This document shows positions 640-64,000 of a DNA stretch of 64,000 nt, piece by piece. Position 1 is the stretch's first letter, and each line of letters begins with the position of its first letter. Origin of the DNA: Gammaproteobacteria bacterium. GTDB lineage: Bacteria > Pseudomonadota > Gammaproteobacteria > UBA1113. The position numbers and the translations under genes were made by a program. The stretch covers positions 2,133 through 66,132 of the forward strand of contig JAGVJQ010000006.1 of the NCBI GenBank assembly GCA_020051015.1, read 5' to 3'. The notes below the pieces were generated by a model that had not been told where the DNA came from, did not search any database, and was given only the letters and a program-made list of their open reading frames with translations.

Positions 640-885
640 TTCTGAGTAACCCAGCCGCTTCGCGGCAAACATGAAAAAAGAATATTATTGAAAATGTAGG
701 GTGGGCTAAATATTGTTGCCCTCGAAGAGGTATCGCATAACAATACTCATCGCACCTTGAGGTGTGATGAGTATATATGTGCCCACCATTGGTGATGTAT
801 GCTGGTATGATGGTGGGCACACATCGCTTAATTGTCATGCTAATTTGTTCTCTTTGTACGTGACGCGATGTTTAGCCCACCCTAC
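640..885. repeat. Composite REP/MITE, family A (GTAGGGTGGGCTAAA... / ...GCCCACCCTAC) with a conserved leader segment
   Basis: GTAG head at 696-699 and inverted CTAC at 882-885. Segment 812-885 is near identical to 21269-21343. Segment 652-710 resembles 45557-45616. Segment 701-750 resembles 56801-56850. A nested hairpin ctcatcgcacc/ggtgtgatgag lies inside. Confidence 0.85.
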
Positions 886-973
886 AGAAGAAAGAACTTC
901 TTAGAAGTTCGTGAGAATTTCTCAGTATTACATAACGTTCCTACGATATTTTGATAAAAAGCATTGGAGGTTT

Positions 974-1726
974 ATGAAAGTCTTAGTAGCAGTTAAACGC
1001 GTTATTGACCCTTATGTAAAAATTCGGGTGAAAGCCGATCATTCGGGTGTGGAAACGCAAAATGTTAAAATGGCGATGAATCCATTTGATGAAATTGCTG
1101 TCGAAGAAGCCATTCGTTTAAAAGAACAGGGCATCGCCAGTGAAGTGATCGTTGTTTCTATCGGTGATAAAAGCGTACAAGAAACATTACGGACTGGTTT
1201 AGCTCTGGGTGCGGATTCGGCGATCCATATTGAAACTGATCACATTTTTTCACCACTAACGATTGCAAAAATTTTAAAGCAAGTAACATTAAAAACAGAT
1301 TCACAGCTTGTTTTGCTAGGTAAACAAGCAATTGATGGTGATAACTCACAAACAGCGCCTATGTTAGCTGCCTTATTAGATTGGCCATTGGCAAGTTTTG
1401 CCTCAAAAATTACAATCAACGGTAATCAATGTGAAGTCACTTGTGAAGTTGATGGGGGCTTACAAACCGTATCATTAACATTACCAGCAATAATTAGCAC
1501 CGATTTACGCTTGAACACACCACGTTATGCTTCGCTGCCTAATATTATGAAGGCAAAATCCAAACCATTAACCGTCATGCCATTTAATACCTTGGATATT
1601 GAAGCGCAAGCACAAACTACTATTACCCAAGTTACACCGCCACCAGTGCGAAAAGCTGGGATTAAAGTGAGCTCAGTGCAAGAGTTGGTAGAAAAATTAC
1701 GCCATGAAGCTAAGGTGTTGCCATGA
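974..1726 (+). CDS. etfB: Electron transfer flavoprotein beta subunit
   Basis: MKVLVAVKRVIDPYVKIRVK...NPFDEIAVEEAIRLKE is a typical ETF-beta N-terminus. GGAGG at 966-970 precedes the ATG at 974. The upstream part of the track ORF (911-973) is probably not translated. The stop overlaps the etfA start. Confidence 0.93.
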   Translation: MKVLVAVKRVIDPYVKIRVKADHSGVETQNVKMAMNPFDEIAVEEAIRLKEQGIASEVIVVSIGDKSVQETLRTGLALGADSAIHIETDHIFSPLTIAKILKQVTLKTDSQLVLLGKQAIDGDNSQTAPMLAALLDWPLASFASKITINGNQCEVTCEVDGGLQTVSLTLPAIISTDLRLNTPRYASLPNIMKAKSKPLTVMPFNTLDIEAQAQTTITQVTPPPVRKAGIKVSSVQELVEKLRHEAKVLP

Positions 1727-61111: not shown

Positions 61112-63940
61112 ATGTCAAAAGATAATGAAAACAGCATGCAGGAAAAATTTGCCACAACGTTTTTATTTGGTGGCAGCTCAGCGTATTTGGAAGAGCAATA
61201 CGAAGCTTATTTACAAGATCCTTCATCTGTTGATCCAGCCTGGAAACAACATTTTGATGCATTACCAAAAGTAAATGGTACCAATGCAGGCGATGTTTCA
61301 CATGCAGCGATAAAAGATTATTTTGTTGATTTAACTTCGCATCCACGTGTTTATGCAACTGGTGTTGATCAATCTGCTGATTTGGTCCGCAAACAATCAC
61401 ATGTGTTGCAATTAATAAATGCTTACCGCAGTTTAGGACATCGTTTAGCGAATCTTGACCCACTTGGTTTTAGACAATTTCCATTAATTCCAGCGTTGCA
61501 ATTATCACAACATGGCTTGAGTGATGCTGATATGTCGACCGAGTTTGACACTAATTCTTTTTCCACTATTGGTAAAAAGAAAGCATCATTATCGACCATT
61601 ATTAATGACTTGAAAAATATTTACTGCCAATCAATCGGCATTGAATATATGTATATGAATGATCCCAACGAGATTGCTTGGGTTCAAAAATACATTGAAC
61701 CATTCTGTGGCAAATTTAAATTTTCTAAAGAAGAAAAAGTACGTATTTTAAAAACGTTGACGGCAGCAGAAGGGCTAGAACGTTATTTAGGTACACGTTT
61801 TGTCGGACAAAAACGATTTTCACTCGAAGGGGGTGATAGTTTTTTACCAATGATGGATGAATTAGTCCGTCGCTCGGGTCGACATGGTGTGAAAGAAGTA
61901 GCGATTGGTATGGCTCATCGCGGACGCCTCAATGTATTAGTTAATATCTTAGGGAAAGCGCCAGCTAAATTATTTGAAGAATTTGAAGGTAAATATGATC
62001 ACACTGAATTATCAGGGGATGTGAAATATCATAAAGGTTACTCATCTGATGTTGAAACTGCAGATGGGGTTGTGCATTTAGTTTTAGGCTTTAACCCATC
62101 GCATCTTGAAATTATTGCGCCAGTCGTAGAAGGCGCGGTACGTGCACGCCAAGATCGACGTGATGATTCTCGCGGTAAACAAGTATTACCGATTATCGTA
62201 CATGGTGATGCAGCATTTGCTGGTCAAGGTGTCGTAATGGAAACATTTGCCTTGTCACATGCCAATGGATTTAGCACGGGTGGTACCGTCCATATTGTTA
62301 TTAATAACCAAATCGGTTTTACCACTAATCATCCATTAGATATGAATCAACACAGCTATAGCACGGATGTTGCTAAAATGGTGCAGGCACCCATCATTCA
62401 CGTGAATGGTGATGATCCCGAAGCGGTAGTATTTGCTACGCAATTAGCACTAGATTTTCGAATGCAATTTGAAAAAGATGTGGTGATTGATTTAGTTTGT
62501 TATCGCCGTTTTGGCCATAATGAATCTGATGAACCAGCGATGACTCAACCGGTGACATATCAACGAGTTAAAGAACATCCTACGGTATTAAATCTATATG
62601 GTAAGCAATTAGTTGCAGAAAATATTTTATCTGCAGATGACGTTAAAGCGATGAGCGATGCTTATCGTGCGGCATTAGATGCAGGTGAACCCGTTGTTAA
62701 ATTAGTAAAAGATCATCCACTTGATTTTGCTACTGATTGGACACCTTACTGGGGCAAACCATGGTTGACATCAACTAAAACAGCTGTGCCAATGGATGTT
62801 TTGAAAGCATTAGGCGAACGTATTACGACGATTCCATCTGATTTTATGTTGCAGCCACAAGTGGCTAAAGAGTATGAAGCACGTCGAGCCATGATTGCGG
62901 GCCAACAACCATTACATTGGGGTATGGCAGAAACATTGGCCTATGCTACTTTGTTAAATGAAAAATTCGCTGTGCGTATTTCAGGGCAAGATTCTGGTCG
63001 CGGTACTTTCTCACATCGACATGCTATTTTACATGATATTCGTAACGATAAAATTTACACGCCATTAAAAAACATTTCTGATGAACAGGCGCCATTTAAT
63101 GTTTATGATTCTATTTTGTCAGAAGAGGCGGTACTCGGTTTTGAATATGGTTATGCCAGTGCTGAACCAAGCGCATTGACAATATGGGAAGCGCAGTTTG
63201 GTGATTTCTATAATGGTGCGCAAGTTGTTGTTGATCAATTTCTTAGTTCAAGTGAACAGAAATGGGGATTATTATGTGGTTTAGTTATGCTATTACCACA
63301 TGGTTTGGAAGGCATGGGACCAGAACATTCTTCTGCACGCTTAGAGCGATTCTTACAATTATGTGCGCAGGAGAATATGCAGGTTGTCGTTCCAACCACG
63401 CCAGCACAATGTTTCCATATGTTGCGCCGACAAATGGTGCGCGATTATCGTAAACCATTAATTGTGATGACACCAAAAAGTTTATTGCGTCATAAAATGG
63501 CGGTATCAACTTTAGAAGATTTAAGCAAAGGTGAGTTTTTAACCGTCATTGGCGAAACAGATAAAAGTATCGGCAAAGAAGTTAAACGACTCATTATTAC
63601 TTCAGGTAAAGTTTATTATGATTTAATTCAGCAACGCACTAAATTAAATCAAACTGATATTGCAATTATTAGATTAGAACAAATATATCCTTTCCCAGAA
63701 CAAGCATTAGCAGCAGAATTAAAACGTTATAGCAGTGCTAAAAAAGTGGTCTGGTGTCAAGATGAAGCTGAAAATCAAGGTGCTTGGTCATTCTGTAAAG
63801 ATCAAGTGCAAGCCTTGCTAAGCAAAGATCAAGTATTGCGTTATGCAGGACGACCAAGCGCAGCGGCGCCTGCTGTTGGTTCTGCGCATGTTCATGCAGA
63901 GCAACAACAAGCTTTGCTTGAGGCAGCATTTACGGTTTAG
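61112..63940 (+). CDS. sucA: 2-oxoglutarate dehydrogenase E1 component
   Basis: About 942 aa. N-terminal SAYLEEQYEAYLQDPSSVD, RGH..A.LDPLG-like block, and ThDP-binding region (GMAHRGRLNVL, HGDAAFAGQGVV). ATG 61112 is preferred over the track start 61097. Confidence 0.96.
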   Translation: MSKDNENSMQEKFATTFLFGGSSAYLEEQYEAYLQDPSSVDPAWKQHFDALPKVNGTNAGDVSHAAIKDYFVDLTSHPRVYATGVDQSADLVRKQSHVLQLINAYRSLGHRLANLDPLGFRQFPLIPALQLSQHGLSDADMSTEFDTNSFSTIGKKKASLSTIINDLKNIYCQSIGIEYMYMNDPNEIAWVQKYIEPFCGKFKFSKEEKVRILKTLTAAEGLERYLGTRFVGQKRFSLEGGDSFLPMMDELVRRSGRHGVKEVAIGMAHRGRLNVLVNILGKAPAKLFEEFEGKYDHTELSGDVKYHKGYSSDVETADGVVHLVLGFNPSHLEIIAPVVEGAVRARQDRRDDSRGKQVLPIIVHGDAAFAGQGVVMETFALSHANGFSTGGTVHIVINNQIGFTTNHPLDMNQHSYSTDVAKMVQAPIIHVNGDDPEAVVFATQLALDFRMQFEKDVVIDLVCYRRFGHNESDEPAMTQPVTYQRVKEHPTVLNLYGKQLVAENILSADDVKAMSDAYRAALDAGEPVVKLVKDHPLDFATDWTPYWGKPWLTSTKTAVPMDVLKALGERITTIPSDFMLQPQVAKEYEARRAMIAGQQPLHWGMAETLAYATLLNEKFAVRISGQDSGRGTFSHRHAILHDIRNDKIYTPLKNISDEQAPFNVYDSILSEEAVLGFEYGYASAEPSALTIWEAQFGDFYNGAQVVVDQFLSSSEQKWGLLCGLVMLLPHGLEGMGPEHSSARLERFLQLCAQENMQVVVPTTPAQCFHMLRRQMVRDYRKPLIVMTPKSLLRHKMAVSTLEDLSKGEFLTVIGETDKSIGKEVKRLIITSGKVYYDLIQQRTKLNQTDIAIIRLEQIYPFPEQALAAELKRYSSAKKVVWCQDEAENQGAWSFCKDQVQALLSKDQVLRYAGRPSAAAPAVGSAHVHAEQQQALLEAAFTV

Positions 63941-63950
63941 ATTTATCTTA

Positions 63951-64000
63951 GCTCCCCTCCCCCGCGAAGCGGGGGAGGGGTTGGGGGAGAGGGGGCTGTC
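63951..64000. repeat. Family F REP (inverted copy), perfect 12-bp hairpin right after sucA
   Basis: CCCCTCCCCCGC-GAA-GCGGGGGAGGGG (63954-63980), followed by TTGGGGGAGAGGGGGCTGTC. This is the reverse complement of the 17748-17800 unit. Cut by the window end. Confidence 0.8.

Follow-up and report, generated by a model that had tools for sequence, protein, structure and literature searches.

The window analysed here, a stretch of 64,000 nucleotides (64 kb) of contig JAGVJQ010000006.1 from a Gammaproteobacteria bacterium, contains five independent families of repeats (A to E) that open with the tetranucleotide GTAG, one other, C-rich family without GTAG, and one gene for a REP-associated tyrosine transposase (RAYT). 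We propose, with somewhat better than even confidence, that the window holds several co-resident families of repetitive extragenic palindromes (REPs) and of their inverted doublets (REPINs), that the local RAYT serves family E and probably family D, and that other RAYTs, lying outside the window or since lost, spread A, B and C.

GTAG was found directly 5' of 9 of the 70 perfect hairpins in the window (stem of at least 7, loop of 3-10). In dinucleotide shuffles (n = 30) the number of GTAG-headed perfect hairpins averaged 0.23 and never exceeded 2, and no tetranucleotide other than GTAG stood 5' of the perfect hairpins more than 4 times. A looser test, which asked for GTAG plus a 7-nt foot with its complement no more than 130 nt away, gave 17 matches against 3.2 in simulated sequence, and 15 of these 17 were members of families A-D. 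Thus, a chance occurrence of GTAG at palindrome ends was rejected by both the shuffles and the foot test. A preliminary description of this DNA had named this enrichment as a check on its reading, and the excess over the shuffles bears it out; all of the coordinates that it listed were also reproduced by a regular-expression search and self-BLAST.

The units of all five families are built on a common frame: GTAG comes first at the 5' end, then a foot specific to the family, the interior, the complement of the foot and a terminal AT(C/T). Both termini were present in 10 of the 15 scored copies and in the consensus of each of the families A-E. Each of the five families has ATC or ATT after the 3' side of the stem. 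The junction reads CCATC in A and B; in C, D and E it reads GGGATC and so contains a GATC site. When folded as single-stranded DNA, A, B, C, E and the single D element (D1) gave z scores of -2.4 to -6.8 with GTAG unpaired; the halves of the D doublet (D2) folded weakly (z -0.8 and -1.7), with reliable pairing in the 9-nt foot only. The B and C units measure 23 nt each and consist, after GTAG, of a perfect 8-bp stem closed by a 3-nt loop; B reads GTAG-GGGCGTAT-TGC-ATACGCCC-ATC and C reads GTAG-CCCGGGAC-GAA-GTCCCGGG. A, D and E are imperfect hairpins of 64-106 nt, often paired in inverted doublets in which GTAG faces outwards and a GAT(C) head inwards, and the A hairpins keep a fixed asymmetric internal loop (TAA against AC) beside the foot. 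Against the size of 20-40 bp by which REPs are defined, A, D and E are long-format variants, and the earlier label of short palindromes does not fit them.

About four to seven copies of each family lie in the window, every one of them in a gap between genes. The preliminary description placed such elements in nearly every intergenic gap, which is overstated: A-E elements occupy 14 of the 27 gaps of at least 40 nt, or 15 when a further candidate, G, is counted and 18 when the C-rich family without GTAG is added as well. Most A-E elements lack T-runs. GC skew is positive throughout the window (39% GC), so that the + strand is the leading strand, and GTAG lies on the + strand in 7 of the 9 single units. 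Since the + strand serves as template for the lagging strand and also carries the sense sequence of most window genes, a replication-strand bias and a gene-strand bias of the single units cannot be separated. Six GTAG families had been claimed in the earlier account; A-E are real, but G has its GTAG base-paired and D and E are siblings, so that the number is four or five.

We next consider the RAYT gene and the family around it. The encoded protein scored 176 bits on NCBIfam NF047646 (cut-off 80) and aligned with E. coli TnpAREP (PDB 4ER8) over 171 residues (E 1.9e-45), with both the HUH motif (PEHIHTIW) and the tyrosine motif YIHFNPVKH in register; on Pfam Y1_Tnp it scored 22.2 against a threshold of 23. 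The E1 doublet, whose hairpins fold with z scores of -2.4 and -6.8 and leave GTAG unpaired, lies 53 nt upstream of the gene, E2 starts 45 nt past its stop codon, and E3 is truncated in its second hairpin precisely where the 3' end of an open reading frame (ORF) of 2197 aa lies. All E copies of the window are confined to the surroundings of the RAYT, as had been said of them, and the NF047646 score, the TnpAREP match and the GTAG-tagged units on both sides of the gene together uphold the REP/RAYT interpretation of the preliminary description. The nearest relative of the RAYT, 73% identical (L005-L007), sits at a different genomic site in another gene neighbourhood, and it too is flanked by hairpins of the same kind, GTAGCCCTCATTA and GATCCCTCATTA, one of them overlapping that gene at its 3' end. 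Because E units flank both the window RAYT and this relative, E is the cognate family of the window RAYT lineage. Within the window, a RAYT flanked by its own REP family (a REPtron) is thus found for E and not for A-D. The E foot, CCCTC(C)ATTA, is constant between copies. The distal arms vary yet remain complementary (AAGCTYGCA and GTTGCACA in the window, CGCGTGCAAT and AGCATGCAAA in L005), which argues for selection on pairing. The REPtron lies between a gene for a Sel1-repeat protein (31368-33782) and the 2197-aa ORF (35069-41662, - strand), which gave no Pfam match.

Family D has the foot CCCGTATTA, which differs from that of E by two bases. Both families share the foot pattern CCC-NN-ATTA (CCCNNATTA), the inner GAT(C) head and a hairpin format of 94-106 nt, and for these reasons we treat D and E as sibling families. 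Given the same foot and termini as in E, D is probably mobilised by the local RAYT too. The features are collected in Table 1.

Table 1. GTAG-headed repeats, the RAYT gene and related features. Positions are those of the window except in the last row, which refers to other loci; rc marks a unit start on the reverse complement; for B, the starts are those of exact 23-mers.
Feature	Position	Strand	Unit starts	Remarks
A1, inverted doublet	696..885 (696-791 + 808-885)		696, 885rc	foot GGTGGGC; folds z -6.1, -3.9
A2, single A hairpin	21266..21343	-	21343rc	95.8% identical to 792-886
A3, more diverged A doublet	45602..45757		45602, 45757rc	leader 45557-45601
A4, short single A hairpin, 64 nt	56798..56861	-	56861rc	56801-56847 100% identical to 699-745
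B1/B2, two exact 23-nt hairpins, inverted	13970..14108		13970, 14108rc	guaA / tadA-like gene gap
B3, variant B hairpin, 2 mismatches	21190..21215	+		adjoins A2
B4, single exact B hairpin	47836..47861	+	47836	exact match
B5/B6, second inverted B pair	57391..57527		57391, 57527rc	upstream of sdhC
B7, decayed B	61056..61081	+		head GTAA, loop CGC; sdhB-sucA gap
C cluster	54485..54655			C1 54485-54510; inverted pair C2/C3 54555-54580 + 54630-54655; downstream of ftsK
C4, single exact C hairpin	55961..55986	+		downstream of greA
D1, single long hairpin	27324..27429	+		GTAG-CCCGTATTA ... TAATACGGG-ATC; fold z -4.3; downstream of fadB-like gene
D2, inverted doublet of D hairpins	43061..43274 (43061-43154 + 43171-43274)		43061, 43274rc	
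E1, inverted doublet of long imperfect hairpins	33813..34022 (33813-33911 + 33928-34022)		33813, 34022rc	GTAG outside, GAT(C) inside
RAYT, TnpAREP-like, 188 aa	34075..34641	+		NF047646, PDB 4ER8
E2, second E doublet	34686..34901		34686, 34901rc	83% identical to E1; first hairpin partly decayed
E3, third E element	34939..35068	+	34939	93.6% identical to E1 across 125 nt
G, two 28-29-nt palindromes	43826..43966 (43826-43854, 43939-43966)			GTAG inside stem; not counted as REP
In-ORF B hairpins, other genomes	L135 3266-3293; L136 3275-3302; L096 ~14203-14230; also L013, L051, L075, L110, L125			

We then looked at families B and A in other genomes. The exact B 23-mer occurs in at least 120 metagenome stretches of 27-69% GC with unrelated flanks, and a further 26 matches lie in viral contigs; the chance expectation of a 23-mer match is negligible. 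None of the A, C, D or E heads was found among these B-bearing metagenome stretches, and the B copies of other organisms lack the 3' ATC tail. RAYT-like genes are present in 9 of the 120 listed B loci, with B hairpins upstream, inside and downstream of them. Their products are about 28% identical to the window RAYT and score 56-69 bits on NF047646, below the cut-off. This divergent lineage comprises 5544 proteins at E <=1e-20, with named members in Deltaproteobacteria, Nitrospirae, Cyanobacteria, Zixibacteria and candidate phyla. It carries the hairpin inside its own ORF, directly after the HUH motif: the exact peptide GVLQYAP (RGVLQYAPT) occurs in 58 of the 120 best homologues, starting at residue 86-121, and the DNA under RGVLQYAPT is the perfect palindrome GTAGGGGCGTATTGCAATACGCCCCTAC. 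Homologues from Anabaena azotica and from a Deltaproteobacteria metagenome-assembled genome (MAG), picked by protein similarity only, both carry GTAGGGGCGTATTGCAATACGCCCCTAC, so that the palindrome is identical in a cyanobacterium and a deltaproteobacterium. In L096, the in-ORF hairpin lacks the first two bases only; synonymous sites do vary in the conserved motifs nearby. Among the genes of the lineage, some contain two in-frame hairpins plus a spacer. These observations suggest that the B hairpin type spans phyla and has its own, divergent transposase lineage, of which no member was found in the 64-kb window. Other GTAG hairpins, mostly with GGGC-type feet and different upper stems, were present in 38 of the 120 listed B loci, suggesting that co-resident GTAG families are common. 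For family A, hairpins with the A head, GTAGGGTGGGCAC, flank a RAYT from an Oxalobacteraceae MAG that is 46% identical to that of the window. Scans of viral contigs with A (15-mer) and E (16-mer) gave match counts within a rough chance expectation, and the scan with C gave a single match, probably in coding sequence, in a contig of 69% GC. BLAST of the B palindrome against plasmids gave no match, text searches of the literature for the B sequence or the encoded peptides returned no paper, and no description of the in-ORF hairpin was found in the literature searched.

More distant relatives of the window RAYT carry other REPs of the GTAGCC type: the RAYT of Legionella moravica and L. quateirensis (57% identity) goes with GTAGCCTGGGAGTAGGCCC REPs and that of Bradyrhizobium (48% identity) with GTAGCCCGGATGGAGCG REPs. 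A genome-collection scan with the window RAYT returned relatives of no more than 48% identity. L. quateirensis (L130) has two RAYT copies 5 kb apart (10001-10522 and 15037-15558), each with the same GTAGCCTGGGAGTAGGCCC REP; in L. moravica, a single copy is accompanied by a fragment (L128 6745-6885).

The mechanism that we propose follows the published REP systems. The elements would be non-autonomous hairpins of single-stranded DNA whose 5' foot bears GTAG in unpaired form. As HUH/Y1 tyrosine transposases, RAYTs would bind and cut them while the DNA is single-stranded, and the elements would spread, as single hairpins or as inverted doublets, into the gaps between housekeeping genes. GTAG would be required for cleavage, with the cut at a nearby CT dinucleotide, as in the systems tested (PMC8266576). 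The elements, their shared frame, the pairing of E with the RAYT and the pairings of B and A in other genomes are shown here; the assignment of enzymes to families in this host is inferred, as is, by homology to TnpAREP, the cut-and-rejoin step. The local enzyme is a group-2, E. coli-like RAYT with E as its cognate family, and D probably uses it too; B would be tied to the divergent lineage and the A head type to yet another RAYT, and the enzymes for A, B and C would be encoded beyond the 64 kb or have since been lost. B units in the window carry a conserved TGATCTNNC immediately 5' of GTAG, which is compatible with a cleavage site and proves nothing.

The preliminary description had offered three explanations of the local diversity: several RAYT genes elsewhere, one promiscuous RAYT, or a graveyard of families whose own RAYTs are gone. 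Several indirect considerations led us to favour further RAYTs for A, B and C. Di Nocera 2013 described 24 GTAG families, with several multi-family species including Stenotrophomonas maltophilia (families 6-9) and Coxiella burnetii, a member of the Legionellales, and such species also feature repeat-specific REPtrons (PMC3733652). The premise of the preliminary description, by which a genome as a rule has no more than a few REP families, was therefore too strong, and the local diversity of the window is not anomalous. In addition, B and A have RAYT partners elsewhere, and Legionella genomes may contain more than one RAYT copy. On the other side, we found no second RAYT-like region in the window, which matches the single RAYT counted earlier, and no partner was found for C. 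The ATC tail ends all five families here and is absent from B elsewhere, which hints at one common processing enzyme, and a group-2 RAYT has shown cross-activity on foreign REPs in vitro (PMC8266576). The link between B and the divergent RAYTs is also partly inflated, because the divergent gene contains the hairpin in its own ORF. All of these points weigh against our proposal.

Relatives of the host were compared as well. The SdhA encoded in the window shares 89% identity with its counterpart in a Legionellales MAG (L132) and 76-78% with those of Legionella and Rickettsiella, which places the host among uncultured Legionellales bacteria. In L132 the sdhB-sucA gap is 20 nt, vs 72 nt with the decayed B in the window, and the gap upstream of sdhC is 104 nt, vs 573 nt with the B pair; the gene order upstream differs. 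No REP was found in either of these L132 gaps. A second relative (L133, SdhA 87% identical) carries a different GTAG REP, GTAGCCTGGATGGAGCGCAGCGGAATCCGGG, in other gaps. These data suggest that REP content turns over between related lineages and that the B copies in the window are lineage-specific insertions.

It is unlikely, in our view, that A, B and C are relics of systems whose transposases were lost, kept as neutral sequence or as useful mRNA 3' stabilisers or terminators. Decay is under way in some copies (B3, B7, the first hairpin of E2, and A3), REPtrons have been deleted in many E. coli strains (PMC3733652), and the GTAG of most single copies lies on the strand of the upstream gene, all of which would fit relics. 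However, 5 of the 7 B copies and 3 of the 4 C copies are mutually identical, A copies reach 96-100% identity over 47-95 nt, and the B insertions are absent from the two L132 gaps. Because the B sequence is conserved across phyla, identity between copies is a poor clock here.

Rather unlikely is a single promiscuous group-2 RAYT that reads little beyond GTAG, a hairpin and an ATC tail and mobilises all five families. The common ATC tail and the cross-activity in vitro speak for one permissive enzyme: the shared termini described above are found in every family consensus, B copies elsewhere lack the tail, and E. coli TnpAREP needs GTAG plus a handful of structural features and cleaves heterologous REPs (PMC8266576). 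But B and C have the perfect 8-bp stem and 3-nt loop of the REPs of S. maltophilia (REPSm), which belong to a group-3 enzyme (PMC8266576); the local enzyme resembles group 2, and the E units that go with it are long hairpins with imperfect stems. Moreover, other genomes pair B and A with RAYTs of their own, and no A-D elements were found in the 20 kb around the 73%-identical RAYT of L005.

A bolder proposal, which we hold to be quite unlikely, is that B is conserved at the DNA level across phyla, with its stem GGGCGTAT/ATACGCCC in frame as RGVLQYAPT in a vast RayT-like lineage, that it persists and spreads here without that lineage, and that the group-2 RAYT moves unrelated GTAG/ATC hairpins. 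If this were true, REP specificity would be far looser, and REP sequences far longer-lived, than one-REP-one-RAYT co-evolution assumes. Finally, it is very improbable that the elements are not mobile REPs at all but terminators or palindromes bound by proteins, each of separate origin, with nothing in common except GTAG. In favour of this, they lie mostly downstream of genes, no transposition was observed and an Rfam search of the repeats gave no family match. Against it, the multi-copy, near-identical units include conserved non-stem flanks, form inverted doublets, flank a bona fide RAYT, mostly lack T-runs and, in the case of B, recur in at least 120 unrelated stretches, some beside RAYT-like genes, while L132 argues against the copies being orthologous and fixed in relatives.

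Our proposal of several co-resident families can be set against the known systems. Like the REP/BIME (bacterial interspersed mosaic element) system of E. coli, whose group-2 TnpAREP (4ER8) aligns with the window RAYT at the HUH and Tyr motifs, E, D and A form imperfect palindromes, interrupted close to the foot by a bulge or internal loop and headed at the 5' side by GTAG that stays unpaired, and the window RAYT, as in the E. coli REPtron, is flanked by its own REPs. They differ in that the E. coli REPs measure 20-40 nt, whereas the E, D and A hairpins have interiors of 40-85 nt within their 64-106 nt; the E. coli foot is GCCGGAT and the window foot CCCTCATTA; and in the window the inner GAT(C) head mirrors the outer GTAG. 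B and C share the 4+8+3+8 = 23-nt geometry of REPSm (PMC8266576), the cleavage of which depends on GTAG (PMC8266576), and S. maltophilia resembles the window in having several GTAG families (SMAG, GTAG-6 to -9) in one genome (PMC3733652). However, the stem sequences of B and C differ from that of REPSm, no group-3 RAYT was seen in the window, and each S. maltophilia family has its own REPtron, whereas RAYT pairing in the window is seen for E alone. REPINs in the sense of Bertels and Rainey, which are inverted REP doublets that act as the replicating unit and are tied to single-copy RAYTs, have candidate counterparts in A1, A3, B1/B2, B5/B6, C2/C3, D2, E1 and E2, all inverted pairs with GTAG outside, and the A and E doublets or halves are 94-96% conserved over the unit. 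Unlike REPINs, several families face one visible RAYT here, and the two B doublets show little conservation in their spacers, so that they may be paired singlets. The GTAG superfamily of Di Nocera resembles the window elements in its unpaired terminal GTAG, stems of 6-13 bp, families common to distant organisms, HH-type dimers (GTAG outside) 20-100 bp apart, and location between co-directional genes. No sequence match to the A-E heads was found in the text and supplements of Di Nocera 2013 (PMC3733652), to which this comparison was limited.

The remaining repeats were examined alongside the main families. A 45-nt leader is common to A1 (651-695) and A3 (45557-45601), so that a complete A element is about 235 nt long; the leader hairpin shows a compensatory change (GCCGC-TTCG-GCGGC vs GCCCC-TTCG-GGGGC). 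The interval between C2 and C3 holds degenerate C-like repeats. Candidate G was rejected as a REP family, since its GTAG is paired within the stem and a single divergent promoter gap holds both copies. Each copy is, over its whole 28-29 nt, one palindrome around CTCGAG, and the two are near-identical and 113 bp apart. The pair, which overlaps promoter-like hexamers, has a divergent Fe-S biosynthesis gene on one side and a VTT/DedA-family gene on the other. Being only local and having GTAG inside the stem, G is probably a paired operator. The C/G-rich repeats without GTAG (17560-17650, 17748-17801, 43290-43325, 50808-51038 and 63951-64000) start with GACAGCCCC(C)TCTCCCCCAACCCC and contain a hairpin CCCCTCCCCCGC/GCGGGGGAGGGG. 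One piece of this family, GGGGAGAG, agrees with GGGGWSAS, a motif of the inverted repeats that flank a second class of tyrosine transposases (PMC3733652).

Housekeeping genes of the window include etf, guaA, tadA, fad genes, ftsK, lolA, greA, sdhCDAB and sucA. Small paired ORFs of a toxin-antitoxin-like kind lie at 42146-42742, 3870-4441 and 11690-12348, one with an HTH_3 domain and the others judged from raw sequence. A second REP sequence common to different classes was also seen: a 31-nt REP is nearly identical (29/31) in L133 (GTAGCCTGGATGGAGCGCAGCGGAATCCGGG; Legionellales, 42% GC; 15061-15139, 12886-12916) and in a Bradyrhizobium sequence (L001, GTAGCCCGGATGGAGCGCAGCGCAATCCGGG; 64% GC; 9884-10569).

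REPs, REPINs, RAYT groups, GTAG tagging, multi-family genomes and families common to distant taxa have all been published (PMC3733652, PMC2817692, PMC5581495, PMC8266576). To these, the window adds families that, judged by the text and supplements of Di Nocera 2013, are putatively new, in a new host, and long-format GTAG hairpins of 64-106 nt around a group-2 RAYT. Several co-resident GTAG REP families are now seen in an uncultured Legionellales lineage as well, which is ordinary for a REP-rich genome. With five families that share one GTAG...ATC frame and differ in their feet, side by side, the window is a test bed for RAYT specificity. The B hairpin, identical across phyla and written into the coding sequence of a RAYT lineage, may matter more than the main finding, as it touches on the question of how a REP and its RAYT remain matched through long periods.

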